Origin: Eledone cirrhosa
Lineage: Eukaryota
DNA length: 64,000 nucleotides
Reading direction: 5' to 3'
Assembly: GCA_964016885.1 (NCBI GenBank)
Contig: OZ024751.1
Location: 51,832,001 to 51,896,000 of the forward strand
This document shows positions 10,163 to 46,142 of this stretch, in pieces. Positions within the stretch are counted from its first letter, which is position 1. Each line of letters begins with the position of its first letter. The notes below the pieces were generated by a model that was not told the origin of the DNA, searched no databases, and was given only the letters and a program-made list of their open reading frames with translations. The position numbers and the translations under genes were made by a program.

Positions 10163-10260
10163 ATTGCCAGTCTGAGGAGCAGATCGATACTGTTGTCAGG
10201 TCCATAACTCCTATGGGTGACCTTGAGCCAATCCTCTGTGAAACGCGTGTAACGTTGATA
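10163..10260 (+). ncRNA. Hammerhead motif with long stem II (paralog of 27574)
   Basis: CUGAGGA-GCAGA...UCUGU-GAAACGCGUGUA; an inverted partial copy lies at about 10080-10140. Confidence 0.6.
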
Positions 10261-10379
10261 CACAATAAATATTTTTTATATGTAAATGAAACATCCTCAT
10301 TTTTTTCTTTATATATATATATACATATACATACACACACATATATACATATATATATATTTTTTGGTGTTTGGTAAAA

Positions 10380-10770
10380 GAAGTAGGGTAGCCATTTTCA
10401 GTGAGAATTATCAGGAATTCCACCATGCTGACATGTCTGTTGCGACCCTCACTGCATCTGTTGTGTATCCTGGAGATCTCATCCTATATATAGGTAATTT
10501 TGACTCAATAGGGAAGGGCAGTCATGGTGCACAAAAATATTTCTGCAGGCATCCTTCTTGTAAAATTTGGTGTATATGGATCCTGCCTCTGTGACTCTTA
10601 GTGTAGAGAAAGGGATCCAGTGGTCTCTGAGTGCTCCACCTCAAATTTCATTTAGACGTCTACATTTTTGAAGATGTAAATCTTGACAGCTTTTTCATGG
10701 GATGAAGTGAGCATGTGGATATCAACATAACTGGAGAAGCTGCTGCCACATTCCAACGTGAAGAAAAGTG
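10380..10770 (-). mobile_element. Old Penelope-like RT fragment
   Basis: Across frameshifts: SYVDI (eroded YVDD), MKFEVE, TKFYKK...IFVHHD, EISRIHNRCS...ILTENGYP. Confidence 0.6.
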
Positions 10771-11150
10771 TTATAGACACTACCTCTACCCTTTGACCAG
10801 TCTCAAATACCCAGAAAAGTGTCCTAAGTGCTACCTCTATCCTCTGACCAGTCTCAAATACCCAGAAAAGTGTCCTAAGTGCTACCTCTATCCTCTGACC
10901 AGTCTCAAATACCCAGAAAAGTGTCCTAAGTGCTACCTCTATCCTCTGACCAGTCTCAAATACCCAGAAAAGTGTCCTAAGTGCTACCTCTACCCTCTGA
11001 CCAATCTCAAATACCCAGAAAAGTGTCATAAGTACTACTGCTACCCTCTGACCAGTCTCAAATATCCAGAAAAGTGTCATAAGTGCTATCTCTACCCTCT
11101 AACCAGTCTCAAGTATCCAGAAAATTATCATAGGTGCTACCCTTTCCTCT
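10762..11150. repeat. 51-bp minisatellite, about 7.5 copies
   Basis: Unit accagtctcaaatacccagaaaagtgtcctaagtgctacctctatcctctg. Confidence 0.9.
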
Positions 11151-11322
11151 GGGGATACATTATAAAACAACTGTGTGAGATAACAAAATGAAGATAAAGA
11201 AGAGATAAAACATGAGTGGGTGGATAGGTGGTAATGGGATGGCTAGCAGCAGTAGTAGTAGGAGCAGTATGAAGAGGACAAACAGCAACAAAGAGTATCT
11301 GTGTGAGGTAGTAGTGACATAC

Positions 11323-11498
11323 TTGTAAACCAGATGTCTTGATCCAAACTACACAGCTTTGGGCATAACTCCTTTTATCTGTTGGTCTGATGGGGAATGG
11401 TGTTTTACTGTCATCACTGCCATAGGGAGATTCTTCACCAAATTCATAAACTGGTCCCAGATGTTTAACGTTGCCAAGCCAACAGATGCTATTTTCAC
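11323..11498 (-). CDS. INTS14: INTS14 coding exon 7
   Basis: WLGNVKHLGP...SPYGSDDSKTPFPIRPTDKRSYAQSCVVWIKTSGLQ; ttttag/GTATGT; 176 nt, phase 1/0. Confidence 0.95.
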
Positions 11499-11544
11499 CT
11501 AAAAATAAATAAACAATATAAATATATATATAAATTGTGCAAGG

Positions 11545-11705
11545 TCAGCTTTTATCACATCATCCCAGGTCTTCCTACTTCATAACTTCCATCAACTTTG
11601 ATAGCGTTGCACCTTTTTATACAGCTGTCATCCTTCATACCATACCAATGCAATCTCCTCTCTAGCATACTGCATCTGATCCCTCTTATGCCCAATTTTG
11701 CTTTG
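11545..11705 (-). mobile_element. RTE C-terminal fragment
   Basis: LGIRGIRCSMLERRLHWYG...GRP. Confidence 0.75.
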
Positions 11706-11744
11706 TCGTTTGTGTATATTACTATTGCACATACATCATTAACA

Positions 11745-12020
11745 AACGGAAAAGGAGTCATCCTTCATCATGATAATGCTAGACTTCACACTGCACAAAA
11801 GACCAAAGATCTAGAAAAATATGCCTGGGAAATTATGCTTCACCCACCATATTCCCGGGACCTCACAGTAACAGATTACCATCTCTCTAGCAGTTTGCAA
11901 AATCATTTGAGTGGATTAAGACTTCCTTCAAGAGAAGAAGTCGAAAATGAGTTAGTTTCCTTTCTTAGTTCAAAACCTAAAGAATTTTATGAACATAGAA
12001 TTAAAAAGCTTTCGTTTTGA
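11745..12020 (+). mobile_element. Mariner transposase fragment
   Basis: ILHHDNARLH...HPPYSRDLTVTDYHL (HDNARPH and YSPDL motifs). Confidence 0.85.
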
Positions 12021-12344
12021 CCCAATACACAAGTTTGTAATTGGATATTATAGCTTGGTTTTACTGTTTTTCCCATTTTAGCTATCAAGTTACCTGGACT
12101 GTGACAGTATCAATAACAAAAATGCATTATGACAATTCTAGGTGATATAGGTGACAATATTAGTTTATAACCTTAAAATAGAGGAGTGAGTACAATGCCA
12201 AGAAAGTGGGTATTAACAACATAGTTGTCACATAAACATTAGTATGGCTGAGGAAATACTTGGCAATATCGATTACATCTCTTCATACTCACAGTTCAAA
12301 CCTCTTCTGAGGTCAACTTTACCTTCCACCCAACCTAAATACCA

Positions 12345-12590
12345 TTCTTCTTCTTCGCCCACTTATTCCTGAGAGGGTCGTGGGGGCAGAGTCCTCAAAC
12401 ACTCCTTCCAGCGAGTCCTCTCGGAAGCAACCATCTCAAACTGATCAGGCTGGATCCCCAAGTGTGACCAGCCAAGCTCATGGATGTTATCCAACCATCT
12501 TACTCGGGGTCTATCCCTAGGTCTCCTACAGGTTGGTTTTGCCCGTAAAATCTGTCCAGCAATTCTTTCCCTGAAACATTCTAACCAATA
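12345..12590 (-). mobile_element. Distinct RTE/Expander-like 3' fragment with (GAA)n tail
   Basis: Translates as RRPRDRPRVRWLDNI...RTRWKECLRTLPPRP-stop, then gaagaagaagaa. Confidence 0.65.
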
Positions 12591-12828
12591 GCATTCAAGT
12601 ACTGCAATTGATATAGTTGACTTATATTGTAGGCACAGTCATGGCTGTGTGGTTTAAAAGTTTACTTCTAAAGTATATAATTCCATATCTGGTCACAATG
12701 CTGTCTGAGTAAATTTGGTAGATAGGAACTCTAAAGGCCTATTGTTTGTGTGTGTATGTGTGTTAGTGTATATCTTTACCTCCAAAACACTGTTGATGAC
12801 ATGTAACTAGATATATTTGCCTACTTAC

Positions 12829-12908
12829 CTGGTTCAAACAATGACAACATTAAGTTTGACTTTTTCTTGCTGTCTGCCCAAGAATATAACATTCCATACC
12901 AGTTTTCG
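12829..12908 (-). CDS. INTS14: INTS14 coding exon 6
   Basis: ENWYGMLYSWADSKKKSNLMLSLFEP; cacag/GTAAG; 80 nt, phase 2/1. Confidence 0.95.
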
Positions 12909-13256
12909 CTGTGATATAAAGGAAGACAATTAAATAGAAACATTAAATAAAATGAAATAAATAAATAAACAAAGAACTCTCTAGAAAACACTCTTATGTC
13001 AATGTGTAGGAGACATGGTGAAAAGGCTCCCAGTCCACAATGTAAATGTGGTTGGTGTTAGGAAGGGCATCCAGCTGTAAAAAAAACCTGCCAGAGACAC
13101 TTCAGTGAGAGCAAATCATGGTCTCCCGGCCATTCCCGCATCTGATAGAACAAAACTGTCTAACCCATGCTAGCATGCAAGAAGGACGTTAAATAATACT
13201 AATAATAATAATAATAATAATAAGAAGAAGAAGAAGAAGAATAATAGCGGCGACGA

Positions 13257-13308
<52 letters not shown>

Positions 13309-13852: not shown

Positions 13853-13915
<63 letters not shown>

Positions 13916-14180
13916 ATAATCATAAAAGGACGATTTGTTATGTCTTCCTTACGTTTATTGAGTAGTGATGCGCGTTTTGCTATTGATCAGCTCAAGGTTC
14001 GATCTGCATCGATCTGGTCTGATCTGGCCCGACGACCTTTTGTTTCCAGAGTCAGGCCAGATCGATACAGATCGAACCTTGAGCTGATCAATAACGAAAC
14101 GTCTGTCACTATTCAATAGACGTAATGAAGACATAACAAATCGTCCTTTTATTATTATAATTACACTCTGTGTAATTATA

Positions 14181-14372
14181 GGCGGGGGATTGGCAGTATC
14201 GGTAGAAGGTCGGATGCCATGCTTTGCAGCATAGAGTTACGGCCCATTTATGGTCTGAGTTCAAATTCCGCCGAGGTTAACTTTGCCTTTCATCCTTACG
14301 GGGTCGATAAAATAAAGTACCAGTAATGTACTGGGTAATTGCTGGCCTTGTGCCAAAAGTAGAAACAATTAT
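14181..14372 (+). mobile_element. Second tRNA-SINE family (copies near 23830, 40728, 40915, 44348, 45431, 50760 minus, 55047, 55395, 55696, 56758)
   Basis: Recurrent tggcagtatcggtaga...gagttcaaat...gcctttcatccttacggggtcgataaaataaagtacc; resembles a MetaSINE-type core. Confidence 0.8.
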
Positions 14373-14780
14373 AATTACACTCTGTTTAGTTCTACACCTC
14401 TAGCAAACTACGCATGGAGTGTTCACTCAGGTGAACCTACAGTAACTGCACGTTACACTCCTTAGACATATATATATATATATTGAAAAAGGACAAAGAC
14501 AATGAAAAAAACCCAGAAAGAAGGACACTCCCATCTCCTTAGTCAATCTCTGGAAATCACTACAGTTTTGGTGCATTAAGGTTGACGCCATTCATTCCAA
14601 TGCACATTGGAACATAATAAAACACGTAGAGACAAGTTAAGCCTTTAGGTAAATTACACAAATATAGTGTGCACAGGGGCTTATCCAAAGGGAGTTTAGC
14701 AAGGCTTTTGGAGATAGTAGTCTATACAACTGGTTGACCATCGTGCTGCCAACCATTTTAGTTAGCTCTTACAACGTGTA

Positions 14781-14962
14781 CAGATACAGTGTAGCTATTC
14801 TAAACCAGATACAGTGTAGCTATTGTAAACCAGATACAGTGTAGCTATTCTAAACCAGATACAGTGTAGCTATTGTAAACCAGATACAGTGTAGCTATTG
14901 TAAACCAGATACAGTGTAGCTATTCTAAACCAGATACAGTGTAGCTATTCTAAACCAGATAC
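14781..14962. repeat. 25-bp minisatellite, about 7 copies
   Basis: Unit cagatacagtgtagctatt(c/g)taaac. Confidence 0.9.
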
Positions 14963-15940: not shown

Positions 15941-16319
15941 TCATCATCATCATCATACTTGCATGGGTAGGATGGGCTCTATCCAGTACATTCCCCTTCC
16001 CCTCATAGTGTTACTTATTCATATACTCTCTCAGGTTCAACATTTCAGGAAACTCTTTTCAGTTTAGTTTGACACTTCTTCCTCTAATGTTTCCGTCATA
16101 AATAGACCTAGCTCGCCACTTGTGACGATAGGAAAGGCATGTATGTCCTACTGTAAAAGAACAACCCACAAATTACAGAATACAACCAATACGAGCCTAT
16201 GAAGAAGTCTTTCCTTCCATAGTTACTGAAAATGCTAGAAATAACAGCAAAATCTTCCTTAAATTACACCCTACTGTCATAAAAAAAGAGTTCAGTGGAT
16301 ACTGTCATGATGTCGATTG

Positions 16320-19300
16320 AAATGGTGATGATAGTTGGAGTAGTTGTAATGGTGTTTGCAGTGGTGGTAGTGGTTGTGGTGATGATGGTTGTAGTGGTGG
16401 TGGTGGTTGTGATGGTAGTGGTTGTGGTGATGATGGTTGTAGAGGTGGTGGTGGTTGTGGTGGTAGTGGTTGTGGTGATGATGGTTGTAGTGGTGGTGGT
16501 GGTGGTAGTGGTTGTGGTGATGATGGTTGTAGTGGTGGTGGTGGTTGTGATGGTAGTGGTTGTGGTGATGATGGTTGTAGAGGTGGTAGAGGTGGTGGTG
16601 GTTGTGGTGGTTGTGGTGGTAGTGGTTGTGGTGATGATGGTTGTAGTGGTGGTGGTGGTGGTTGTGGTGGTAGTGGTTGTGGTGATGATGGTTGTAGTGG
16701 TGGTGGTGGTGGTAGTGGTTGTGGTGATGATGGTTGTAGTGGTGGTGGTGGTTGTGATGGTAGTGGTTGTGGTGATGATGGTTGTAGAGGTGGTGGTGGT
16801 TGTGGTGGTAGTGGTTGTGGTGATGATGGTTGTAGTGGTGGTGGTGGTGGTAGTGGTTGTGGTGATGATGGTTGTAGTGGTGGTGGTGGTTGTGATGGTA
16901 GTGGTTGTGGTGATGATGGTTGTAGAGGTGGTGGTGGTTGTGGTGGTAGTGGTTGTGGTGATGATGGTTGTAGTGGTGGTGGTGGTGGTAGTGGTTGTGG
17001 TGATGATGGTTGTAGTGGTGGTGGTGGTTGTGATGGTAGTGGTTGTGGTGATGATGGTTGTAGAGGTGGTGGTGGTTGTGGTGGTAGTGGTTGTGGTGAT
17101 GATGGTTGTAGTGGTGGTGGTGGTGGTTGTGGTGGTAGTGGTTGTGGTGATGATGGTTGTAGTGGTGGTGGTGGTTGTGGTGGTAGTGGTTGTGGTGATG
17201 ATGGTTGTAGTGGTGGTGGTGGTGGTTGTGGTGGTAGTGGTTGTGGTGATGATGGTTGTAGTGGTGGTAGTGGTTGTGGTGATGATGGTTGTAGTGGTGG
17301 TGGTGGTGGTGGTTGTGGTGGTAGTGGTTGTGGTGATGATGGTTGTAGTGGTGGTGGTGGTGGTTGTGGTGGTAGTGGTTGTGGTGATGATGGTTGTAGT
17401 GGTGGTGGTGGTGGTTGTGGTGGTAGTGGTTGTGGTGATGATGGTTGTAGTGGTGGTAGTGGTTGTGGTGATGATGGTTGTAGTGGTGGTGGTGGTGGTG
17501 GTGGTTGTGGTGGTAGTGGTTGTGGTGATGATGGTTGTAGTGGTGGTGGTGGTGGTTGTGGTGGTAGTGGTTGTGGTGATGATGGTTGTAGTGGTGGTGG
17601 TGGTGGTAGTGGTTGTGGTGATGATGGTTGTAGTGGTGGTGGTGGTTGTGATGGTAGTGGTTGTGGTGATGATGGTTGTAGTGGTGGTGGTGGTTGTGGT
17701 GGTAGTGGTTGTGGTGATGATGGTTGTAGTGGTGGTGGTGGTGGTTGTGGTGGTAGTGGTTGTGGTGATGATGGTTGTAGTGGTGGTGGTGGTTGTGGTG
17801 GTAGTGGTTGTGGTGATGATGGTTGTAGTGGTGGTGGTGGTGGTTGTGGTGGTAGTGGTTGTGGTGATGATGGTTGTAGTGGTGGTAGTGGTTGTGGTGA
17901 TGATGGTTGTAGTGGTGGTGGTGGTGGTGGTTGTGGTGGTAGTGGTTGTGGTGATGATGGTTGTAGTGGTGGTGGTGGTGGTTGTGGTGGTAGTGGTTGT
18001 GGTGATGATGGTTGTAGTGGTGGTGGTGGTGGTTGTGGTGGTAGTGGTTGTGGTGATGATGGTTGTAGTGGTGGTAGTGGTTGTGGTGATGATGGTTGTA
18101 GTGGTGGTGGTGGTGGTGGTTGTGGTGGTAGTGGTTGTGGTGATGATGGTTGTAGTGGTGGTGGTGGTTGTGGTGGTAGTGGTTGTGGTGATGATGGTTG
18201 TAGTGGTGGTGGTGGTGGTGGTTGTGGTGGTAGTGGTTGTGGTGATGATGGTTGTAGTGGTGGTGGTGGTGGTTGTGGTGGTAGTGGTTGTGGTGATGAT
18301 GGTTGTAGTGGTGGTGGTGGTTGTGGTGGTAGTGGTTGTGGTGATGATGGTTGTAGTGGTGGTGGTGGTTGTGGTGGTAGTGGTTGTGGTGATGATGGTT
18401 GTAGTGGTGGTGGTGGTTGTGGTGGTAGTGGTTGTGGTGATGATGGTTGTAGTGGTGGTGGTGGTGGTTGTGGTGGTAGTGGTTGTGGTGATGATGGTTG
18501 TAGTGGTGGTAGTGGTTGTGGTGATGATGGTTGTAGTGGTGGTGGTGGTTGTGGTGGTAGTGGTTGTGGTGATGATGGTTGTAGTGGTGGTGGTGGTGGT
18601 AGTGGTTGTGGTGATGATGGTTGTAGTGGTTGTGGTGATGATGGTTGTAGTGGTGGTGGTGGTTGTGGTGGTAGTGGTTGTGGTGATGATGGTTGTAGTG
18701 GTGGTGGTGGTTGTGGTGATGATGGTTGTGGTGGTAGTGGTTGTGGTGATGATGGTTGTAGTGGTGGTGGTGGTTGTGGTGATGATGGTTGTAGTGGTGG
18801 TGGTTGTGGTGGTTGTGGTGGTAGTGGTTGTGGTGATGATGGTTGTAGTGGTGGTGGTGGTTGTGGTGGTAGTGGTTGTGGTGATGATGGTTGTAGTGGT
18901 GGTGGTGGTGGTTGTGGTGGTAGTGGTTGTGGTGATGATGGTTGTAGTGGTGGTGGTGGTTGTGGTGGTAGTGGTTGTGGTGATGATGGTTGTAGTGGTG
19001 GTGGTGGTTGTGGTGGTAGTGGTTGTGGTGATGATGGTTGTAGTGGTGGTGGTGGTGGTTGTGGTGGTAGTGGTTGTGGTGATGATGGTTGTAGTGGTGG
19101 TGGTGGTTGTGGTGGTAGTGGTTGTGGTGATGATGGTTGTAGTGGTGGTGGTGGTTGTGGTGATGATGGTTGTAGTGGTGGTGGTGGTGGTGGTTGTGGT
19201 GGTAGTGGTTGTGGTGATGATGGTTGTAGTGGTGGTAGTGGTGATGATGGTTGTTGTGGTGGTGGTGGTGGTTGTGGTGGTAGTGGTTGTGGTGATGATG

Positions 19301-20705
19301 GTTGTAGAGGTGGTGGTGGTTGTGGTGGTAGTGGTTGTGGTGATGATGGTTGTAGTGGTGGTGGTGGTTGTGGTGATGATGGTTGTAGTGGTGGTGGTGG
19401 TTGTGGTGGTAGTGGTTGTGGTGATGATGGTTGTAGTGGTGGTGGTGGTTGTGGTGATGATGGTTGTAGTGGTGGTGGTGGTTGTGGTGGTAGTGGTTGT
19501 GGTGATGATGGTTGTAGTGGTGGTGGTGGTTGTGGTGATGATGGTTGTAGTGGTGGTGGTGGTGGTTGTGGTGGTAGTGGTTGTGGTGATGATGGTTGTA
19601 GTATTTGTGAAGTTGATGGTTGTAGTGGTGGTGTTGATGGTTGTAATGGTTGTGGTATTGACGATGGTTGTAGTGGTTGTGGTATTGACGATGGTTGTAG
19701 TGGTTGTTGTATTGATGATGGTTGTAGTGGTTGAGGTATTGACGATGGTTGTAGTGGTTGTGGTATTGACAATGGTTGTAGTGGTTGTGGTATTGACGAT
19801 GGTTGTAGCAGTTGTGGTATTGACGATGGTTGTAGTGGTTGTGGTATTGACAATGGTTGTAGCAGTTGTGGTATTGACGATGGTTGTAGTGGTTGTGGTA
19901 TTGACAATGGTTGTAGCAGTTGTGGTATTGACGATGGTTGTAGTGGTTGTGGTATTGATGATGGTTGTAGTGGTTGTTGTATTGATGATGGTTGTAGTGG
20001 TTGTGGTATTGATGATGGTTGTAGTGGTTGTTGTATTGATGATGGTTGTAGTGGTTGAGGTGTTGACGATGGTTGTAGTGATTGTGGTATTGACAATGGT
20101 TGTAGTGGTTGTGGTATTGACAATGGTTGTAGCAGTTGTGGTATTAACGATGGTTGTAGTGGTTGTGGTATTGATGATGGTTGTAGTGGTTGTGGTATTG
20201 ATGATGGTTGTAGTGGTTGAGGTATTGACGATGGTTGTAGTGATTGTGGTATTGACAATGGTTGTAGTGGTTGTGGTATTGACAATGGTTGTAGCAGTTG
20301 TGGTATTAACGATGGTTGTAGTGGTTGTGGTATTGATGATGGTTGTAGTGGTTGAGGTATTGGCGATGGTTGTAGTGGTTGTGGTATTGACAATGGTTGT
20401 AGTGGTTGTGGTATTGACAATGGTTGTAGCAGTTGTGGTATTAACGATGGTTGTAGTGGTTGTGGTATTGATGATGGTTGTAGTGGTTGAGGTATTGACG
20501 ATGGTTGTAGTGGTTGTGGTATTGACAATGGTTGTAGTGGTTGTGGTATTGACAATGGTTGTAGCAGTTGTGGTATTAACGATGGTTGTAGTGGTTGTGG
20601 TATTGATGATGGTTGTAGTGGTTGAGGTATTGACGATGGTTGTAGTGGTTGTGGTATTGACAATGGTTGTAATGGTTGTGTTGATGGTTGTAGTGGTTCT
20701 GGTGC
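16320..20705. repeat. 4.4-kb GTN/ATG trinucleotide-phased satellite with two sub-arrays
   Basis: Variable units of roughly 30-57 bp (gatgatggttgtagt(ggt)n...) to about 19600, then about 27-bp units (gacgatggttgtagtggttgtggtatt). Confidence 0.95.
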
Positions 20706-20729
20706 TTTAATAAAACAGGAGGAACTTAC

Positions 20730-21568: not shown

Positions 21569-23487
21569 CCGTTTTACGTCCGTTCTTCCACACTAGCATG
21601 GGTTAGACGGGTTGTCCTGTTGTGGGCAGTGTCTGGTCGGCTGACCATGCCTTGCTCATACAGGAACTGATTTGGCTTGATTTCTACAGCTGGATGCCGT
21701 TCCTAACACCAACCTCATTTACAGTGAGTGCTGGGTGCTTTTTCGTGGCGCCTACACGTCCACTTTACAGTGTGGGCTGGGTGCTTTTTTGCCGTGGCAC
21801 CTCCACGACCACCTTGCAGTGGGGGGTGTGGGGGCATATTGTCTATATGCTTCAGCTTGTACCCATGGGAGGTCGGGTACTCTGTATTACTGCGTGACGC
21901 CAGAAGTCACGGTCGTGTGTCATTGTCTTTGAGAGGTGCAATTGGGTAAGGTCGGCTTTTATCACCTCATCCCAGGTCATCTTGGGTCTCCCCACTCCGC
22001 GGTTTCCATCAACTTCTAGTGCTCTGCACCTTTTTATGCAGCTGTCATCCTTCATACGCATCACATGTTCATACCAGCGCAACCGCCTCTCCTGCACACA
22101 GCATTTGATACCTCTTATGCTCAGTCTCTCTCTCAATTCATTTATGCTTTGTCGTTCACGTATATTACTGTTACACATCCATCGGAGCATACAGGCTTCG
22201 TTTCTCTCTAATCTACGTAAGTCTTCCACCTTCAGCGCCCAGGTCTCACTACCATGCAACATCGCTGTTCGGATACACGCATCATACAGTCTGCCTTTCA
22301 TTCTGAGGGAGAAGCCTTTTGCAGCTAGCAGTGGTAGTAGTTCCCTAAACTTCTTCCATCCCGTTCTTACCCTAGTTATTGTACTTTCTGAACACCCACC
22401 TCTGCTGCTAATTCGGTCAGAAGCTGTCTACTGTTTCTACAGGGCCCTCCCAGAGATTGGTGGTACTTGTTTCCTGTGGCTGTTTGCTGCTTGCTGTATC
22501 AGCACAGCTGCTGCATGTGAATCCTACATTCTTAATTAAGCTTCCTGAGATCCCGCTACATCTCTTGTGTACCCATTGTTTGCATTTGGGGCAGAGAATG
22601 GAGTTCCTACCTACACCTTTCCTACATACTGAGCAAGACCATTTCCCTGAGGGGATCTGGGTTCTGTTTTCTCGTCTACTTACAAGGACCTTAGTCTTTG
22701 TCATGTTGACTTTGAGACCCTTTCTTTCTAGTCCCTGCTTCCAAGTTTGGAATTTATTCTCTAGTTCTACCATAGATTCAGCTATGAGTGCGAGGTCATC
22801 AGCATACAGGAGTTCCCATGGGCATCCGGTCTTAAACTCCTCCGTTATTGCCTGCAGGACTATGATGAACAGGAGAGGGCTAAGAACAGAGCCCTGGTGG
22901 ACCCCAACCTGTACGCTAAATTCCTCGCTATACTCATTGTTAATCCTAACTTTGCTGACTGCTCCCCTATACATGGCTTGTACCGCTTTCACAAGCCATT
23001 CATCTTCTCCTAGTTTTCTAAGAGCCCACCAGATTACAGAACGTGGAACTCTGTCAAAGGCTTTCTCAAGGTCGACAAATGCCAAGTAGAGTGGCTTACT
23101 TTTAGCTAGGTACTTTTCCTGTAATTGCCTCACAAGGAAGAGGGCATCAGTGGTGCCTCTCCCTGGTACAAACCCAAATTGCATCTCGTCTATTTTCACC
23201 CGGTCCCTAATCAGCTGTGCTATAACTCTTTCTGTTACTTTCATGACCTGGTCCATCAACTTTATACCTCTATAGGTTCCTCTATCTAGTGCATCGCCTT
23301 TACCTTTGTAGCAGTTGACAATAATGCTATGCACCAATCTTTTGGTATGGCACCTTCTAGTATTACCTGGTTAACGATACGTGTGGTTATAGTGTGACCT
23401 ACAGACCCAGATGCCTTCAGCATCTCGGCAGCTATACCCGATGGACCGGTTGCCTTCCCCATCTTCATATCTTTGATTGCCTTACTT
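21541..23487 (-). mobile_element. RTE subfamily B, 5'-truncated and frameshifted
   Basis: RT and PHD fragments; 3'UTR with (GAT)n tail. Confidence 0.92.
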
Positions 23488-26745: not shown

Positions 26746-27573
26746 TCATATATATATATATATAAATTGAAAATAGGATGCGCGCACAACAAAGACAATG
26801 GAAAAGAAAACCAAAACTGGTAGATAGTAATAGCAATTGGAAAAACCAATGGAAACATTGTTTCCTTGGTCCGATTTGACGAAAGTTGATCGACTATCAT
26901 ATCATCATCATCATCATCATTTTACGTCCGCTTTTCCCTGCTTGCAAGGGTGGGACGGGAACTGATTCTGGCTTGATTTCTACAGCTGGATGTCCTTCCT
27001 AACACCAACCTCATTTACAGTGAGTGCTGGGTGTTTTTTTTCCATGGTGCGTACATGTCCACTTTACAGTGAGGGCTGGGTGCTTTTTTGCTGTGACACC
27101 TCCACGACCACTTTGCAGGGGAATGATAGGGAACCCAGTATTATCATCTCATTTCTACAGCTGAGTAAACTGGAGCAATGTGAAATAAAGTGTCTTGCTC
27201 AAGGAAACAACACATCACCCGGTCTGAGAATTGAACTCACAACCTTTCGATTGCAAGGTCAATATGTATATATATATATGAATTGAAAATAGGATGCGTG
27301 CACAGCAAAGACAATGGAAAAGAAAACCAAAAAACGGAAATATATATATATTATATATATAGGGATGGTAACGTGAGTTAGTGTAGGTTCATCCAAGTGA
27401 GCACTCGATGCGTAATTAGTGTAAATATAATATAATAATAAAAGCACGATTTGTTATGTGTTCATTACATTTATTTATATTATATATAGTGTAGGTAGTA
27501 CAGTGAAGTACTGGTGTTGGTACCAAATCAAGCACTCTAAACACAGGCACAACAAAAATATATCTTTTGTCAC

Positions 27574-27672
27574 ATCACCAGTCTGAGGAGCAGATTGATA
27601 TTGGCGTCGGGTCCATAACTCCTATGAGTCACCTTGAGCCAATCCTCTGCGAAACACGTGTAACAGGTTGAT
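27574..27672 (+). ncRNA. Hammerhead motif with long stem II
   Basis: CUGAGGA-GCAGA...UCUGC-GAAACACGUGUA; stem I AUCACCAGU/ACAGGUUGAU (imperfect). Confidence 0.7.
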
Positions 27673-28204
27673 ACGCAATAAATATTTTTCATATGTAAAC
27701 GAAACTTCCTTGTTTTTTTCTATTTTTTTCTATGTGTGTGTAGGAGTACTCAATATGGAAGTTTTGATATTCTTTTTATTACTGCTAAATAGTGAGTCAT
27801 GTTACTTTAGAATTTCCCACGTTTACCACAGAGTAATCAGACAAGAACTAATGTTTCAATAGCAGACACAGTATAAATAAAGGAAGACTCAAGGTGGGAG
27901 AGGGGGATTTTAAATGAAGGGGAGGGTAATTAAAATAGGGTGAACAGGGTGGTGGTGGCAGTGGGTGAAGGGATAATGGATATAGCCATAAAACTGGTCA
28001 GTGGTAGGCAGGTGATGAATGTGAAGGTGGGTATAAATGTTTTAATATAGAAAAGCTTCTACAGGACTAGAACTGTTTGATTCGTGAGAAATCATGTATA
28101 TATATATATATATACATATTGTTATATTTGGGGAGGGTCATATTGTTATAATATTGCCAGAAATAATAAAACACACTCACTGTTTCAAAACCTTGCAAAA
28201 CAAA

Positions 28205-30000: not shown

Positions 30001-33000
30001 TCATCATCATCATCATCATCATCGTTTAAAGTCCATCTTCTACGCTTGCATGGGTTTGGACGGGAGTTTTCCCACTTGAGGCAAGAGTGGTTGTCTTGCT
30101 CGCATAGGACTGTCTGGCGGGTTTTCTACGGCTGGATGCCCTTTCTAACACCAACCATGTTTACAGTGTGGACTGGGAGGTTTTTACCGTGTTACCTACA
30201 CGGCCACATTACAGTGTGGACTGTGTGTTTTTTTGTCGTGACACCTACACGACCTCATTTGTTTCGGACTGGATGTTGTGGTACCAACATAACTTTACAT
30301 TGAAAGGGGTGGTGTGGATGGGGTCGGGGTAGTGGGACGGGGTGTATTTTTGTTAGAGGTGCCTACTGACTGTAGTAGGTTTCACTTTGTAGTTAGGTAA
30401 GGCGGGTCTTCTGTATTACTGTGTAGCGCCAAAGATCTCGGTCCAGTGACATTGTCTTGGAGAGGTGTAAGTGTGTGAGGTCGGAATTTATCAAGTCGTC
30501 CCAGGTTTTTCTGGGTCTGCCTACTCCGTGGCTACGATCTATTTTTATTGCCCTGCACTTTTTTATACAGCTGTCGTCTTTCATGCGCATCACGTGACCA
30601 TACCAACGTAGTCTTCTCTCGAGTAAACAACATCTGATCCCTCTTATTTCTAATTTTTCCCTTAGTTCGTTTATGCTTTGCCGTTCACGTATATTACTAT
30701 TACACATCCAGCGGAGCATGCAAGCTTCGTTCCTCTCCAGTCTGCGTATATCCTCTGCACACAATGCTCAGGTCTCACTGCCATGTAACATTGCTGTTCG
30801 TATGCAAGCATCATACAGCCTGCCTTTCATTTTTAGAGAGAACCCTTTAGCGGCTAATAGTGGTATAAGCTCTCTGAACTTTTTCCATCCAGTTCTGACT
30901 CTAGCTACTGTACTTTCAGAGCACCCTCCACCACTGCTGATTTTGACACCCAAGTAACGGAAGGGGTCCACTATTTCTATAGAACCATCTGTGCAATGGA
31001 ATGAGCTAGTATTCTGTGGGCACTTGCTGCTACTTATTGCACCAGAGCACCGGCCACATGTAAAATCTATGTTCTTAGTTAGCTTACCTGTGATCCCACT
31101 ACATCTTTTATGCACCCATACTTTGCATTTGGGACATAAAATGGAGTTTCTACCTACTCCTTTCCTACACACTGAGCATGGCCATTTCCCGGATGGGACC
31201 GGTGCCCTATTTTCCTTCCTACAAACTAGAACTTTAGTCTTAGACAGGTTAATTTTAAGGCCTTTTTATTCTAGGCCATGCTTCCATGTTTGGAATTTCT
31301 TCTCTAGTTCGGCCATTGATTCCGCTATGAGCGTTAGATCATCTGCGTATAGGAGTTCCCATGGGCAGCCGGTCTTGAACTCCACTGTTATAGCCTGAAG
31401 GGCAATAATAAATAGTAGGGGGCTAAGAACGGAGCCCTGATGAACACCAACTTTTACGCTAAACTCTTCACTATATTCGTTGTTAATTCTAACCTTGCTG
31501 ACTGTTTCTTTATACATGGCTTGTATAGCTCTCACAAGCTATTCATCAACACCTAGTTTTCTAAGAGCCCACCAGATAATGGAACGGGGGACTCTGCCAA
31601 AGGCTTTCTCAAAGTCGACAAAAGCTAAGTATAGGGGTTTACTTTTAGCTAGGTACTTCTCCTGTAGTTGTCGTACAATGAAAAGAGCGTCTGTGGTACT
31701 TTTACCTGACAGAAACCCGAACTGCATTTCATCTAGATCAATTCTCTCTCTGATTAGTTGCGCTATTACTTTTTCTGTGACCTTCATGACCTGGTTGATT
31801 AATTTAATGTCTATCTAGGGCATCTCCTTTACCCTTGTAGCAGTTAATGATGATGCTGCTACGCCACTCCTTCGGAACAACCCCATTCTGTATGACTTGG
31901 TTTACTATCCGAGTGACCATGGTGTGTCCCACCGTTCCAGAAGCTTTCAGCATTTCAGCAACTATTTCCGAAGGCCCAGCCGCCTTACCCGTCTTCATAT
32001 CTTTGATTGCCTTACTTATTATACTACCTTCGACTAACACTGCTGGTCCCTCTATTGGATCGATGTGGGGGAGTCTGTCTTTCTCCCATTTATTCTCCTC
32101 ATTTAGTAGCCTTTCGTAGTGACACTTCCAAGCTACCTTCTTATCAGCGTCAGTGATGGCAAATACACCATCATCATTAAGGACACACTTCTCCCCGACA
32201 ATATCACGGTTTTCCTTGACACATTGCCTAGCAATCCTGAACACCTCACGTTTTTGGTCCTCGCATTGTAGAACATGCTTGAACTTTCTTTCCTCTGCTT
32301 CCCTTCTTGCGAAGTACACTTGTCTCCTAGCTTCCCTCCTGGCCACTTGATAGTCTTCTCTACTTCCCCCATCCCGCCATACTTTCCAAGCCTGCTTTCT
32401 GGCCTTAATTGACTCCTCCACCTTACTGTTCCACCACCACATTACTCTCCTCCTGCCTATAGGCCTGCTCCAGCCACAGACTTCGTCTGCCGCCATCAGC
32501 AAGTTTGCTTTCAGGAATTCCCACTGTTCCTCTATATTGTACGACTCTAATTGCTCTTCCTTACTGTCGAAAGCATCAAGTAATATGCTTTTAAATTTAT
32601 TACTGGCTGTGGGGTCCTTTAGCTTCCATATTTTTCTCCTGAGGATAGTCCTCTTCTGTTGTCGAGTACGTCTCGTCCTGACTATGAGGTCGTTAATTAT
32701 CAGTCTATGTTGGGAGGTGCATTCTTCATGGGGGAGGGATTTAGTGTTTACAACAGACACTCTGTCATGTCTTCTGGTAAGGATATAATCTACCTGGCTG
32801 GTATGTTCCCCTGATCTGTAGGTGATCAAGTGATTGTCTCGTTTTTTTAAGTTAGTGTTACAGATAGTTAGGTTATTTGTGTCACAGAATTCCAGGATTC
32901 TGGAGCCTTCCTCATTTCTAGTACCAAACCCATAGTCTCCATGGATTCCGTCATAGCCGTCACAATGTTGTCCAACGTGACCATTTAGGTCGCCAGCAAT

Positions 33001-33780
33001 AATTATATAGTCACTGTCGGTTATTTGGGAGGTAGTGAGCATTAGTGTCTCATAGAATCTGTCTTTTATAGCGCCAGGCAGTCCGGATTGGGGTGCGTAT
33101 GCAGATATTACTGTCACAGTAGTTCTATTTAGAACAAGTCTTATTTTAATTATTCTGTCATTCACTCTATTTACGTCTATTATCTTATCCACCCATTTTT
33201 CTGCTAACATGATTCCTACCCCACCCAGCCCATTGTCATTTCCCACCCAGAAAAGCTTATAGCATCGTTTTTTACCCACAATGAATCTAGCAGACCCGCC
33301 CCTCCACCTGGTCTCTTGGATACAGCAAACATCAACCTCCTTACGTTCAAGCATTTCTACAACCTCGTTAGGGCGGCCTTTTAAGGTGCCTACATTTATG
33401 GTACCAACTCTGAAGTTTTGGATTGCGTTTGGTGGGTGGGGCGTGGGGAGGGGTGAGGGGGATGGGGATGGGGTTGGGGTTATGTTGGCCATCCGCGGCC
33501 GAAACAAAGAGGAGGAGTCCTTGCCCTTTCGTCCGGCAGCATGAGGTGAATTTGTCGTTATCTTTGGCATTGTCTCCGAGTGTCCAGATTCTTCAGACTC
33601 TCCAGAAATTCCTTAGTCCATCCATCATATCGAAAAGCAACCAGGAGAAGTGATAGCATAGGCCGCTGACTTATGATTGGTCCAAATAATAATGGTGGAG
33701 AGTGGGGGCGGGAGGGATGGGTATGGGGTAGTTAGTGAGGAGAAGGTTTTAAATAAAGCAATAACAGTAACAAGCGATTA
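30001..33780 (-). mobile_element. RTE subfamily A, near-full-length disabled copy
   Basis: Same protein split into ORFs 31804-33570, 31539-31787, 31266-31535, 30768-31172 and 30393-30764 by stops and a frameshift; same 3'UTR and tail; 5' limit approximate. Confidence 0.93.
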
Positions 33781-36394: not shown

Positions 36395-36437
<43 letters not shown>

Positions 36438-37932: not shown

Positions 37933-37976
<44 letters not shown>

Positions 37977-39800: not shown

Positions 39801-40609
39801 TCTGCTAAATGCTCAGTTGACCTTCAGTTAACTAGAGCTCTTGTGTTTATTTGTGTATATCACTGTCTTGTTTCTGTTGGATTATATAAGAAAGACTGCA
39901 AGTGAGAGGCAACACCTGTCACAATGTCACTCTGAACATAATCCTTCCCCTTCTCTACCCCCCCCCCCCCTCTCTCACTAAATATAACCATTGCATTCCT
40001 TGTAAATTGCATCTGAAATGCCACCCTTATCTTCATTACCAACCCTACTCTCTATAATCAAGCTGCTATTAAAACACAATTAGATACTTGCGACCAGTAG
40101 AGCTCAATGATTGCTAAACATAGGGTGGTGGCGCTATTGTGCATTCTCTTCTTATTCACTATAATCATCATCATCATCCTCATCGCAATCATTATCATCA
40201 CCACTACCAAAGCTACTACAACCATCATCATCATCACCAATACAAAAAGCCACCATAACCATCATCACCACAATCATTATTATTGTCATCATCACTACCA
40301 AAGCTACAATCATCATCATCACCAACACCAAAGCCACTACAACCATCATCATCATCACCAATGCAAATCTTCATTATCATTTTTCATAAGTAGCTCTGGG
40401 CCATGTTCCACTGCCCCTACCCTCTCTCTATCAAATGAATACCTAATCAGCAAAACTAGTAGAACCCGTTTTTCACGCTATTCTGCAGAAAGAACTTTCT
40501 GGTTTAGCTATGACGTGGATCTATTTTATATTGACGTCACATTTAATAAATTAATCTATAAAAATATACATGTGTGTGTGTATATATATATATAAATATA
40601 CATGTGAAC

Positions 40610-40701
40610 ATATATCTGAGGAGCTTCCAATTCCAGAGTCAGGATCGATCATTAATGGATTGTTCCTTGAACTAATTGGCAGTGAAACATATGTAATATG
40701 T
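40610..40701 (+). ncRNA. Hammerhead motif with long stem II
   Basis: AUAUAU-CUGAGGA-GCU...AGU-GAAACAUAUGUA-AUAUGU. Confidence 0.55.
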
Positions 40702-41084
40702 AATTAAATATACATATGATTCTTTGGTGGATTGGCAGTATTGGTAGAGGGTCGGACGCCATGCTTTGACGTATAGAGTTACGGCCCTTGCCATTCTGAG
40801 TTCAAATCCCGCCAAGGTTAACTTTGCCTTTCATCCTTACGGGGTCGATAAAATAAAGTACCAGTAATGCACTGGGTATTTGCTGGCCTTGTGCCTAAAG
40901 TAGAAACAATTATATTGGATTGGGAGTATCGGTAGAGGGTTGGACTCCATGCTTTGCAGCAAATAGTTACGGCCTGCCGAGGTTAACTTTGCTTTTCATC
41001 CTTACGGGGTCGATAAAATAAAGTACCAGTAATACACTGATTAATTGCTGGCCTTGTGCCAAAAGTAGAAACAATCATCATGAT

Positions 41085-41435: not shown

Positions 41436-43688
41436 TATATATATACATGCGTGAGTTTGTGTGTGTGTGTATATGTGTTAATTAATTCTAGTGCATTAGA
41501 ATTAAGCACTCCATATCACATATACCATTTCTTCTATGATATGGATTTATATAGGCTGATCCACAACAGAGTATCGATATATGCATGATCACAAAGACAG
41601 GGTGCTATTTTGTTCTAAACTGTCATTATGCACATTTATGAATAGGTCAGTGAACATTACATAATGTAATCAGGCAGACACGCCTTCATCAGACGGTTGG
41701 CTAAAGATAAATAAAACGTTTACATAATGCTAGTGACATATTGGACTATGTTCACAGCTGTCTCTGTTTTGACTGTGTTGTGGATGTTTGCTCAATTATC
41801 TAACTTCTGGTTATGATTTATGGATTTGTTGTTATCTTATCTTCTAAGGTCATGTTGACAGTCACAAACAGTATTTTTATTTCCAGGCTGTACTATATTA
41901 CATAATATAGCTATAGCGTTTTAGTTAACACTGCATTTTTTTATAAGTAACAGTAAGCTACATTCTGTATGTCTGTTTCTCTCTCTCTAATATATATTCT
42001 TCTTCTTCTATACATCTGTTACCAGTGGTTTGATGAAGCTCCTCCACTCTGTGTAGCACTTCCTCAGCTTTTTTGCAGGTGTTTGCATCATCATCATCAT
42101 CAACGTTTAACGTCCGTGTTCCATGCTTGCATATATATATATATGTGTTGTGTGTATATATATATATATTTATCACCCATGCTAACATGGAAGGTGGATG
42201 TTAAACGGCGATGATATATATATATACTCTTTTTTTTTTTACCTATTCCAGCCATCTGGCTGAGGCCATGCTGGGGCACCGCCCTTGTATGTGCACACAT
42301 ACACACATATATATATTAACCATGTACATCTGGTTTAAAATAGGTACACTGTAGCCATGTGTGTCATTAAGAAGTGACTAAAAGGGTTGGTGTTAGGAAA
42401 GGCATCTGGTTGTAAAACATTGCCAAAAAAAGTCTCATCCAACCCATAGAAAAGTTAATGTAAAAATGATGATGAGTGTGATATCATTTCATTTTACGTC
42501 CACTTTTCCCTGCTTGCAAGGGTGGGACGGGAACTGATTCTGGCTTGATTTCTACAGCTGGATGCCCTTCCTAACACCAACCTCATTTACAGTGAGTGCT
42601 AGGTGCTTTTTTGCCGTGGCACCTCCACGACCACTTTACAGTGGAATGATAGGGACTGGAGTCCCTATCATCTCATTTCTACAGCTGAGTAAACTGGAGC
42701 AATGTGAAATAACGTATCTTGCTCAAGGAAACAACACATCACCCGGTCTGAGAATTGAACTCACAACCTTTCGATTGCAAGGCCAATGCTCTAACCACTA
42801 AGCCCTGTGCCTCCATATATATATATATATATTCAGTTTAGTCAGGCTTTTCAGGGCTGAGGAGAAAAGGAATCCTAAACCCAAATGCTTTTAATAGAGA
42901 GAACTCACCTAAAAGCATTCATCATTATCATTTAACGTCTGTATAAGCATGGGCAAGGCTTGAGAAATGAAGATAGAAAAGTAATGACGAAGATATAACG
43001 TACATGTACTTTAGATATAAATATGTCAATTCTTAAATATATATACAGTATGGTGAGGAATGTACAGGGAAGAAACATAGAAGGCAAGGGAGGTAATAAA
43101 AAAAATATATATTTAGTTCTTAGGTTGGCGAGTTGTTTAGCTACATGTCAAGACTAATTGAGCAGACCATTCCACCTTATTTTCAGACATTGTATTCAGT
43201 ATTACATTACCCAATGTATCGTTTCTTACCCCAGTTGGTAAGGTGTGATTAGAAGGAAATTTGGCTGCTATTTGTAGCAAGTCATTCAACCACAGAGATG
43301 GACGCTGGAAGAGGTTGATATTAATACAAGCATCAGATAGCAACAGAAAATATAATAAAAACTGACTGAGCAAACCTATGGTCAAAAACATTCCAGCCAT
43401 GACAACCCCATCTTTTTCTTGAGCATAACATGTGTAGGACTACATTATCCAATAAGTACCTCTCTTTTCAAGACGGAAGGTTGTAAATTGAGAGACACAT
43501 GGCTGTTGTTTCTAGCATGAGGCATTTTATTTGTCACTCTACCATAGCATAAAAAGACACAGAAGGAGAGTGGCGAATAAGAAGGAAGAGAAGAAGGAGT
43601 AGGAGAGAAGAAATATTAACATCCATTATAACTAATGTAAACACACACAATGTGCAAAATTTGGTCAATAATAAAGAAGAATACGTAC

Positions 43689-44080
43689 TTCTCATAAGGT
43701 TCTGGTGGTGGATATAGTTGGACTGTACATTTTAGTTGACCACAAGTCAATGTCATAACATAGGGAGAGAAAATATCATCAGCAAATCTTTGAAACATCT
43801 GTTGAACTGATTTTGTGGAAAGAGCAGCATCTGGGGTATAAACATCACCTCCATAACCGTTAATGTCAATTAATTTTTGAAAGAGTGGCAATGAAATGCG
43901 GAGGTTAGGATCCGATGGAGGTGCAATGCACAGTACATATAGTTTACATCTGGTACTGAAAGGTAACGGAAAGCTTCCCTTTTCACTGCTGCTCTTTGAT
44001 TCTCTTTTATGATATTTCTGTAATGAGTAAGACAAGGAACCAGGACCAACACCGGAACAACCATCTGTGATTAACAGAAC
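43689..44080 (-). CDS. INTS14: INTS14 coding exon 3
   Basis: VLLITDGCSGVGPGSL...FPLPF...LTCGQLKCTVQLYPPPEPYE; tttcag/GTACGT; 392 nt, phase 0/2. Confidence 0.95.
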
Positions 44081-45671
44081 CTGAAATAGATTGAGATTGA
44101 CATTCAAAAGAGTCATAAGACAGCTGTTGTCACTTAATATATATATATACATATATATATTAAGAGAGAGAGAGACACACACATATATATGTGTGTGTGC
44201 AATATATATATACATATACTTTTTCATTACCACATTTATAATGAAAGATATTGCCTATGATTTTCAGATCATTTCGAAAATAATTAAGAATTGGGAGAAA
44301 TTTAATCATGTAACTAACTTCCTCATTTTTTAGTTGGTGTAGAGCAGTGGATAGGCAGAGTCATAATAGCACCAAACAAAAGGTTCTGCGATATTTAGTT
44401 ATTGCCTTTTATCTTCTGTGTTCAAATCCCACCAACGTCAGCTTCACCTTTCACCCTTTTGAGGTCAATAAAATAAAGTACCAGTAAAGTATTCAGGTGC
44501 AGTATAATTGACTTTTCCCTTCCCACAAATTGTTGGCCTTGTGCTTAAATAAGAAATCATTAAGTTGGTGTTTGTAGCATAAATTAACATTTGTATTTAT
44601 CTAAAAATCTTCCATCATAATTTTCTGCAAGAACTGTTAAGTTTTGTTCCAAACATAAGCATAATAATGAGAAAGTTAGCCATACTACTAAATTCCTTGA
44701 AATTCTTGAATATTTTCAAAATGATACAAACATCAAAGACAATGTTTTTCATGAGCAATATGGTAATGAAAGGGTTAAAGTGGAAATATTGCATTTATAT
44801 CATTTATACTTTTGGAAAAAAACAAAAACTGACTGTGAGCAGAGAGTCTCTATGTGGCTGCTTAACATGCTAAAGATAGCAACCAAATATCCCTAAAATC
44901 ATACACTTAACTGTTTTAAATAACAACAAGCAGCCATTTCCTCAGACAGGTTTGATACTCATTGTGATGTCCTTTTTCAGGCAATGTTATACGGCCAGAT
45001 GCCCTTCTTGGCACCCACAATGTTTTAACTGCCGCTTATGACACAGAAATACGGTGTACCTATTCTGAACTGGATACACATAGCAAACAACTGTCTTAAA
45101 TGAAGGAAATATTAGATAATATAGTCTTAGATACCCTTAAAAAGGTGGGGTGAACATGGATCAAATACTTTTGATCCAAGGTTTGTTTAATTGAGATAAC
45201 CTAGGTCTAAACACCAACAACAACATGAACTTGTCAATACTTCCCATCTATAAATTCGAAATGCCAATGGAAAACATTTGACAAGGAACAAAACAAAAAA
45301 ACATGATAGCCGTGGTGATTTAAATTACTTCCCTTTGAACAAAAGCAAATATTTTGCTGTAAAGCAAATATTCGAAGTCAGAGTTATTATTATTATAAGT
45401 CACAGTTATTATTATAAGAGACAAGGGTGATGGATTGGCAGTATCGGTAGAGTGTCGGACACCATACTTTGCAGCATAGAGTTACGGCCCTTTACAGTCT
45501 GAGTTCAAATTCCGCCGAGGTTAACTTTGCCTTTCATCCTTATGGGGTTGATAAAATAAAACACCAGTAACGTACTAGGTCGATTTAATCGACTTTCCCC
45601 TCTCCTCAAATTACTGGCCTTGTGCCTATACTAGAAATCATTATTATAAGAGACAACAGACTGCAACTCAC

Positions 45672-45842
45672 CTGAGATGTGGCAAAGATACTCCATTCTT
45701 CAGTTATGATTGAATTCACTCCACTCAATGCTGTTTCAATGCATGTTTTGCTGTATTCTTCCACTTTATTTAGCGCATTCCTTATTTGTTCAACATCACG
45801 TGTAAAAGGGACCAGTTGTTCCCAGAGATAAGAAAATACTAC
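45672..45842 (-). CDS. INTS14: INTS14 coding exon 2
   Basis: VVFSYLWEQLVPFTRD...KTCIETALSGV...EEW; tattttag/GTGAGT; 171 nt, phase 0/0. Confidence 0.95.
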
Positions 45843-46053
45843 CTAAAATATTAATGAAAAGGACAGGTAAAGGCTGTTTGTGTACGGTTTACAATTACAT
45901 AACAGATACCATGAAAATATGTACAACTGCTATTGCATAATAAATATCATAGCTTTCTACTTCATAATATATATGTATTTTGCATTATATTATTTGATAT
46001 GATATGAAGTTATCGCTTGCATGTATTACTGTTGAAGCTTATAACAATATGTA

Positions 46054-46142
46054 AATTCCTGAGGATATGTAGACCGACGGACAGATGCATCGTGTATATC
46101 GTGGTATGGCCTGCCGTTATACATTGAAACATATGTAGAATT
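46054..46142 (+). ncRNA. Hammerhead motif with long stem II
   Basis: AAUUC-CUGAGGA-U-AUGUA...UACAU-U-GAAACAUAUGUA-GAAUU. Confidence 0.7.

Follow-up and report, generated by a model that had tools for sequence, protein, structure and literature searches.

Penelope-type hammerhead ribozymes with a structured stem II of about 60 nucleotides, probably scattered as truncated element ends, in a stretch of Eledone cirrhosa DNA

A 64,000-nucleotide (nt) stretch of repeat-rich animal DNA from Eledone cirrhosa (contig OZ024751.1, positions 51,832,001–51,896,000; hereafter the window, with positions counted from its first letter) contains hammerhead ribozyme motifs whose stem II, at about 60 nt where 10–25 nt is usual, is far longer than published descriptors allow, and raises the question of what these motifs are, which elements left them there and whether they would cut. 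Judging from the sequences, we consider it likely that four such sites are the 5'-truncated 3' ends of Penelope-like elements (PLEs), the parent RNA of which would cut itself as a dimer. The motifs are Penelope-type hammerheads with a structured 60-nt stem II, and they were probably scattered as truncated element ends.

The plus strand of the window carries four complete type I hammerhead cores, with CTGAGGA starting at 10172, 27583, 40616 and 46059, the GAAA half-core at 10240, 27651, 40684 and 46126, a domain II of 61, 61, 61 and 60 nt between the two, and predicted cuts after H17 at 10251, 27662, 40695 and 46137, respectively. Compared with the consensus in PMC3088659, the core (C3 U4 G5 A6 N7 G8 A9 / G12 A13 A14 / A15.1-U16.1 / H17) is complete at all four. 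The original prediction had named these four sites, their intact cores and these cuts correctly; its inventory omitted two further long-stem copies with a U4C core (CCGACGA at 14029, CCGATGA at 52667), a pair of hammerheads with a short stem (9541, minus strand; 61088, plus strand) and some partial copies in inverted orientation. The six long-stem copies are the following:

10162–10262, plus strand: long-stem hammerhead of family A; core at 10172, domain II at 10179–10239 (61 nt), stem III ACGCGTGT, predicted cut 10251, stem I damaged.
27573–27673, plus strand: long-stem hammerhead of family A, the best-preserved copy; core at 27583, domain II at 27590–27650 (61 nt), stem III ACACGTGT, predicted cut 27662.
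40606–40706, plus strand: long-stem hammerhead of lineage C; core at 40616, domain II 61 nt, stem III ACATATGT, predicted cut 40695.
46049–46148, plus strand: long-stem hammerhead of the divergent lineage D; core at 46059, domain II 60 nt, with U.U at its base and lacking the inner motif that the other copies share; stem III ACATATGT, predicted cut 46137.
14019–14118, plus strand: decayed long-stem hammerhead of family B; U4C core CCGACGA at 14029, domain II 60 nt.
52657–52785, plus strand: long-stem hammerhead of family B between two (TA)n runs; U4C core CCGATGA at 52667, domain II 60 nt.

The spacing between the half-cores is thus fixed at 60–61 nt in all six copies and across four lineages, and no extra base follows A9. 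Constrained folds place three helices around the core, with helix I open, at 27583, 40616 and 46059. The predicted closing stem I holds to that extent; it is poorly closed at 10172, where a 2-nt deletion leaves just two contiguous pairs, and interrupted at 27583, where it consists of two base pairs (bp), an A.A mismatch, three bp, a bulge and three bp. Both window copies of family B combine U4C with a C.A mismatch at the base of stem I. Position 10.1-11.1 is G-C at 27583 and 52667, G.U at 10172 and 40616, C.C at 14029 and, at the base of stem II of 46059, U.U, which is a tolerated state already known (PMC3088659, PMC7229834).

The pattern CTGANGA-N55-66-GAAAC-NNNN-GTH occurs four times in the window, whereas shuffling yields a mean of 0.01 matches (100 shuffles of the whole window) or 0.013 (150 local shuffles); the spacer range was picked after the data had been seen, and a wide range still gives seven matches against 0.58 expected. 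A strict pattern scan recovers 40616 alone. A covariance model built from five copies finds the remaining one, 46059, at E 5e-4, an inverted copy (13956–14045) at E 0.002, and 46259–46365 at E 0.16, with nothing else below E 0.4 among 24 matches. The Rfam hammerhead covariance models gave no match to these copies among the 150 of 171 matches listed, and none at 27540–27720 or 40595–40725 up to E 10; the short control hammerhead at 9541 was missed as well, so this failure is not specific to the long stem. The published minimal descriptor allows a helix II of 3–7 bp and a loop 2 of 3–10 nt, hence at most 24 nt (PMC4209133 supplement), and the expectation that descriptors with short loop limits miss stems of 60–61 nt is therefore well founded.

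Whether the long stem II is one conserved structure can be judged from its alignment. Five of the six copies align almost without gaps across domain II; 46059 was omitted because it aligned out of register. Among the five aligned copies, 8 of 21 proposed pairs change on both sides and five are invariant, while pairing is found in 84.8% of 105 cells, a value reached by none of 500 shuffles and compared with 22–36% in slid controls, both controls being inflated since the structure was derived from the same sequences. RNAalifold returns the same long stem unprompted. On this comparative evidence, the long stem II in five of the six copies is one homologous structure. Domain II folded alone is better than shuffles at 27583 (z -2.1) and 40616 (z -2.0), and no better at 10172, 46059, 52667 and 14029. 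The long irregular hairpin of the original prediction accordingly survives as a stem shared by covariation in five copies, and as a single-copy fold that beats shuffles in two of six. Within this stem, one module stands out:

27605–27639, plus strand: conserved inner module of stem II; (A)GUC(A/G)GG paired with CCUUGA(G/A)C with one bulged U, in the same place in five of six copies.

The inner helix GUC(A/G)GG / CCUUGA is near-invariant and lies at a fixed distance from the core. Near-invariance of this kind suggests recognition of the sequence and is no proof of pairing. A reading of the module as a kink-turn or a selenocysteine insertion sequence (SECIS) element, made by eye, was dropped because the register that it requires lacks covariation support. 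The reverse strand of the conserved 3' arm (10220–10228 in the 10172 copy, and the same place in the other copies) reads TCAAGGTCA, which we take to be a nuclear-receptor-like site, and the invariance of this arm could act at the DNA level.

The second distinctive feature is stem III, which is self-complementary and perfectly so at three of the four intact sites; the ACGCGTGT of 10172 requires two G.U pairs. As a hairpin within one copy (2 bp and a 4-nt loop) it would cost +2.4 kcal/mol, and as an 8-bp duplex between two copies it would yield -7.0 to -10.3 kcal/mol. In public contigs the majority letters at 27656 and 27659 are G and C (79% each in data set X1, 82% and 85% in X4), and the form of family A is therefore ACGCGCGU; ACACGUGU is a minority variant with two symmetric CpG-type transitions, probably produced by CpG decay. 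Family B, in the loose ends of contigs, carries the same 8-mer as family A, ACGCGCGU, and a second palindrome, ACAUAUGU, is found at 40616 and 46059. The claim that self-complementarity is kept across different sequences stands for ACGCGCGU and ACAUAUGU, both palindromic, and falls for ACACGUGU, which belongs to a minority copy and is not a family form. Minimal PLE hammerheads have a short palindromic helix III and are predicted to need a dimer for cleavage (PMC4209133, PMC6765202), and the palindromic helix III found here is likewise suited to dimer pairing. The motifs can thus be described, as had been proposed, as hammerhead-derived, of Penelope type by their self-complementary stem III, and present in several sequence lineages.

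If the copies are of Penelope type, their surroundings should record how they were inserted. PLE insertions are described as 5'-truncated, with an inverted copy, a tail at one end and (TA)n targets (PMC8557442). The units around the long-stem copies are as follows:

10154–10308, plus strand: family A 3' unit in direct orientation, lacking the tail and with (TA)n after it; 85.5% identical to 27549–27721.
10026–10144, minus strand: inverted family A 3' unit with an internal deletion and no 5' half-core, facing the direct copy head to head; 83% to 27614–27724 across 112 nt.
9979–10025, minus strand: tail of the inverted family A copy (GAGTGCT motif), ending beside a TA-rich run; opposite-strand contig joints.
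27548–27724, plus strand: direct, tail-less family A 3' unit, highly repeated in contigs of two organisms.
27490–27547, minus strand: inverted family A tail abutting (TA)n; contig joints of 27535–27549 to 27707–27724 on opposite strands.
27362–27480, minus strand: 3' end and tail of family B, inverted, with a (TA)n run on either side; 91% to 14115–14159 and 84% to 14406–14456.
13915–14027, minus strand: inverted copy of family B that lacks the tail, facing the direct copy head to head and abutting (TA)n; 88% over 116 nt.
14119–14465, plus strand: family B 3' end and tail, ending beside (TA)n and interrupted at about 14180–14367 by a short interspersed nuclear element (SINE)-like repeat with duplicated target.
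46206–46300, minus strand: inverted 3' half of a related long-stem copy without 5' half-core, abutting (TA)n; E 0.16.

Of the two copies that face each other head to head at 9979–10310, the inverted one has a tail and the direct one has none; the reverse holds at 13915–14465, where the tail belongs to the direct copy; and at 27490–27724 the tail alone is inverted. All three loci carry a tail, of 47–95 nt, at one end only, and the inverted copies at 10026–10144 and 13915–14027 are 5'-truncated. A (TA)4+ run lies within 13 nt on at least one side of every unit except 9541, against a background of one run per 571 nt on average in the window. Inverted 5'-truncated copy, one-sided tail and (TA)n target are thus all found. 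The setting in TA microsatellites is as predicted in that each site has a nearby (TA)4+ run, although such runs flank both sides at 10172 alone, the left side at 27583 and 40616, and the right side at 46059. No open reading frame (ORF) adjoins any copy, in agreement with the claim that the motifs come without coding sequence; with no reverse transcriptase (RT) or endonuclease ORF linked to the long-stem copies, their PLE origin rests on architecture. The SINE-like repeat (14157–14384), which has duplicated 17 nt of its target, lies within the tail of family B and must be younger than the family B insertion.

From these features we posit the following course of events. A PLE reverse transcriptase-endonuclease would nick at (TA)n and start copying at or near the tail, as the biology of PLEs suggests; in vitro, copying by a PLE of Anolis starts at the tail (PMC11167929). 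Copying that halts early, and often inverts, would scatter short 3' ends with the ribozyme still inside. Cleavage of the long-stem hammerheads is predicted to be of the dimer type: in a tandem parent transcript, two stem III palindromes would pair into an 8-bp helix and permit cleavage after GUA or GUC, and solitary copies would show little or no cutting. The outer part of stem II would not be needed for catalysis and may serve as a handle recognized by its sequence, the most likely partner being the protein of the element itself; this is the step of which we are least sure.

An INTS14-like gene (minus strand, at least 47258 to 6717, eight exon matches) holds all four intact cores in its introns, on the strand opposite to its own. 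This placement fits selection against sense copies, in a sample that is small. Site 46059 lies about 200 nt from exon 2 of this gene, and the sequence upstream of 46059, considered as a possible PLE ORF, was rejected as such on being recognized as an exon of the INTS14-like gene.

Evidence on how widely the families have spread comes from public sequences. The mapping stretch 27370–27800, which includes other repeats, was matched by 3,168 contigs in data set X1, 3,303 in X2 and 4,625 in X4, and by 1,269 restriction-site-associated DNA (RAD) reads in X5. The family A 3' unit, to which 27583 belongs, is highly repeated in public contigs of two organisms. In X1 the summed contig depth, which is not a copy number, reaches about 11,000 across the core and 39,000 at 27685–27699, against 21–23 in unique flank; a depth that rises toward the 3' end is as expected for a 5'-truncated repeat. 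The figures on variants of family A rest on 40 of 112 variant rows, and those on joints on 15 of 144. In 13 of the 15 joints listed, the tail and the 3' end come together on opposite strands, and the loose ends of contigs at tail ends are TA runs. Among the variant rows listed, the majority core changes of organism B are at N7 (88%) and H17 (89%), both tolerated positions occupied by allowed bases.

Several observations weigh against truncated PLE ends with a functional ribozyme. No RT/GIY-YIG ORF stands beside the six long-stem copies in the window; the tails, at 47–95 nt, exceed the 30–40 nt described for PLEs; and the tail motif runs in the direction opposite to that in Hydra-type loci. The covariation is drawn from only about three lineages, with controls inflated as noted above, and the majority change A>T at 27641 in organism B (88%) breaks a proposed stem II pair unless its partner also changes. 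Conservation of the core across copies was measured in 40 of 112 variant rows only; the comparison of 10172 with 27583 places none of 11 differences in the 13 core positions, which is not significant (P 0.16); and an A stands at G12 in 268 of the 432 plus-mate RAD reads from X5, compared with 5% (X1) and 2% (X4) of depth. Family B is repeated despite U4C and the C.A mismatch at the base of stem I. The argument from strand is weakened by the hammerhead at 9541, a short one that sits on the gene's own strand.

We see it as rather unlikely that the parent was instead a short non-autonomous element of fixed length (about 110–250 nt), retrozyme-like, perhaps moving via circular RNA and borrowing PLE enzymes. 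Such a parent would account for the lack of an ORF next to any of the six copies, for the start of both family A copies within a few bases of each other, and for the 14 of 24 listed contig pieces (the longest pieces kept) that begin at 27548–27553. It would also suit the 40616 copy, which is bounded by a 15-nt direct repeat with one mismatch (at 40593 and 40705, 112 nt apart), and one listed contig joint of 27690 to 27548; retrozymes are, moreover, derived from the pseudo-long terminal repeats (pLTRs) of PLEs according to Li et al. 2026 (bioRxiv 10.64898/2026.07.22.740005). However, no tandem array or second intact core occurs within 1 kb of any site in this window, depth climbs toward the 3' end, several contigs continue 150–900 letters upstream of 27548, and release of a unit-length circle is beyond a ribozyme that stands alone. 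The same account describes PLE insertions as, for the most part, single repeats with 5' truncation (Li et al. 2026, bioRxiv 10.64898/2026.07.22.740005). The retrozyme-like nature suggested at the outset finds no support in this window, and the architecture matches truncated PLE 3' ends.

The core raises a different doubt, namely that the ribozyme is dead or no longer needed and the motif a relic, kept for its fold or its sequence as a protein-binding or DNA-level signal, with no role for cleavage. Family B, with U4C and an open stem I base in both copies, nevertheless spreads, and U4C considerably lowers activity in vitro (PMC3088659). Ribozyme mutants of the Anolis PLE insert unaffected in vitro, with no reads ending at the cut site (PMC11167929); PLE minimal hammerheads cut weakly even as dimers (PMC4209133); and eight of nine Xenopus retrozyme dimers did not cut (bioRxiv 10.64898/2026.07.22.740005). 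The five invariant pairs of stem II are also what sequence recognition would predict. Against this, the full core is kept in four lineages, the changes at N7 and H17 in organism B lead to allowed bases only, among the rows listed, and stem III is palindromic in two different sequences, ACGCGCGU and ACAUAUGU. We accordingly hold a relic to be unlikely.

Cleavage of the monomer is very unlikely in our estimation. An internal loop of stem II, after the first three to five pairs, would dock on the mismatch and bulge of stem I and offset the weak stem III; the A.A mismatch and bulge of stem I and the internal loop do lie at a fitting distance, and the active monomer fold at 27583 is just 3.3 kcal/mol above the free minimum. 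The stem III of a monomer would nevertheless be the 2-bp hairpin of +2.4 kcal/mol with its palindromic 4-nt loop, and a palindrome is of no use there. That the motifs are chance matches in AT-rich repeat DNA, as the TA-like stem I of 40616 beside microsatellites and the four of six domain II segments that fold no better than shuffles might suggest, is refuted by the excess of motifs (four against 0.01 expected), the fixed spacing, the shared inner module, the covariation and a repeated family in two organisms, and we consider it next to impossible.

The window contains two hammerheads of ordinary size for comparison with the long-stem copies:

61088, plus strand: hammerhead of a Hydra-type PLE; domain II 26 nt, stem III ACCACTGGT, stem I 6 bp.
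9541, minus strand: ordinary minimal hammerhead in an intron, on the gene's own strand; domain II 14 nt, palindrome ACTAGT, stem I 6 bp.

The first belongs to a decayed Hydra-type PLE at 57315–61170 (plus strand), which lies between two (TA)n runs and consists of RT and GIY-YIG pieces (57418–59421) and a long microsatellite-filled 3' region. Its pieces match a 655-aa RT-endonuclease protein at 43–69%, and its N-terminus, compared by eye, resembles Hydra-1_Obim of PMC8557442. This element was considered as the parent of the long-stem copies and rejected, its own hammerhead being different. A decayed relative of the 61088 type, with the same stem III and a broken GAAA, is found at 42067 (minus strand). 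The motif AGCACTC occurs on the plus strand at 9996, 27399, 27530, 57379 and 60048; it precedes the start codon of the Hydra-type ORF by about 40 nt, has the same direction in the Hydra-type loci L094 and L100, and in the long-stem families has a tail position in which it points the other way with respect to the ribozyme, which makes it a candidate endonuclease or promoter signal. Elsewhere, 599–4039 (minus strand) is an open 1146-aa frame of a long interspersed nuclear element (LINE)-type element with endonuclease and RT motifs recognized by eye, with decayed relatives at about 8300, 21850–23370 and 30400–33600, and 16200–20700, part of an intron, is taken up by a 4.4-kb tandem array that is rich in GGT/GAT and extremely skewed in GC.

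The census of hammerheads in PLEs rests on descriptors that limit domain II to about 24 nt, and the role of hammerheads in these elements is an open question. The covarying 60-nt stem II of a repeated family reveals a blind spot in that census and suggests a re-reading of the half-cores reported in Naiad elements. The conserved inner helix is a concrete candidate for an RNA signal recognized by a PLE protein, and families A (intact core) and B (U4C core) form, in one genome, a natural pair on the question of whether cleavage matters for spread. A bolder extension is rather unlikely: the long-stem ribozymes would be an overlooked, actively cutting class in which the 60-nt stem II module, through its conserved bulged helix, loads the element's own RT-endonuclease, ribozyme and loading signal would form one fold, hundreds to thousands of copies would exist in cephalopod-like genomes, and some of the 'hammerhead-less' half-core Naiads would thereby be explained.

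How do the long-stem copies compare with what is known? We found no description of the form in the literature; repeat databases lay outside this search, and a prior description is possible. The accessible portions of PMC6155905 and PMC6962438 yielded nothing on long stems, and the motif strings of the window were not found in this context in the accessible part of the PMC8557442 supplement. Pattern scans of public collections returned no relative among 3 viral and 85 prokaryote loci (3 of the 88 have a half-core upstream), and further scans returned one metagenome locus in a GC-rich coding region plus three and two loci, again without a relative; the covariance model gave no full hit on nine pattern-scan loci.

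Hydra-clade PLEs (PMC8557442 File S2; 61088 in the window; L091–L105) share with the long-stem copies (TA)n targeting, a 3' hammerhead and a self-complementary stem III. They also carry the AGCACTC/GAGTGCT motif about 100–150 nt downstream of the ribozyme, as in the long-stem families, but in the opposite direction. Their stem III is mostly 9–10 nt and their domain II short, which the long-stem copies do not fit: loop 2 is 4–10 nt in the Hydra elements of PMC8557442 File S2, and the Hydra-type loci gave 29 hammerhead hits, with a domain II of 11–24 nt, in 13 of 16 loci. The scan of these loci required three contiguous stem I pairs and would miss copies like 27583; the model search of the same loci had no such limit, and the hammerheads found were all short. 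The 16 loci, all in genome contigs (8 from one assembly) and none in viral contigs, come from an alignment of 39 of 52 relatives of the Hydra ORF; the ORF of the window used as query found no loci. The loci L090–L105 are animal-type PLEs with hammerheads in prokaryote genome records, mostly symbiont or metagenome bins, and likely represent host DNA.

An enlarged loop 2, of 35 and 29 nt, is found in PLE-X1 of spike mosses (PMC8557442 File S2, marked deviating), although these are plant, endonuclease-less elements targeted to ribosomal DNA, with a shorter domain II and no sequence in common. The non-LTR retrozymes described by Cervera and De la Pena (2020, PMC7229834) and by Li et al. (2026) are, like the long-stem copies, non-coding, with a type I hammerhead and a relation to pLTRs, and axolotl HHR_Amex2 (PMC7229834) has the U.U at the helix II base that is seen at 46059. 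They are, however, defined by tandem repeats and circular RNAs and have a short helix II, whereas no head-to-tail hammerhead repeats occur within 1 kb of the copies in this window.

Closer in kind are the minimal hammerheads in the pLTRs that metazoan PLEs carry (Cervera and De la Pena 2014, PMC4209133), which share the type I topology, the full core, the dimer-type palindromic helix III and the occurrence as mostly solitary copies of truncated elements with some close inverted pairs. They have an extra base after A9 and G10.1-C11.1, which the long-stem copies do not fit; here, domain II is 60–61 nt in all six copies, the palindrome has 8 nt, an inner helix is conserved and stem I is interrupted in family A. 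The 'HHR_half_core' of Naiad elements (Craig et al. 2021, PMC8557442 File S1) shares PLE 3' ends, the preference for (TA)n and half-cores set 35–50 nt apart. Read by eye, the 3' ends of Naiad_Obim and Naiad_Ovul as given in PMC8557442 do not match the long-stem families; a resemblance between the tail of family A and part of Naiad-2_Chem, also by eye, is a weak lead. A nematode consensus listed just before Naiad_Hcon ends with CUGAUGA, 50 nt closed by GUCC/GGAC, and GAAAC (PMC8557442). The eight Naiad half-core cases, flagged there and not interpreted, with their spacing of 35–50 nt, are thus the nearest precedent for the long-stem form (PMC8557442).

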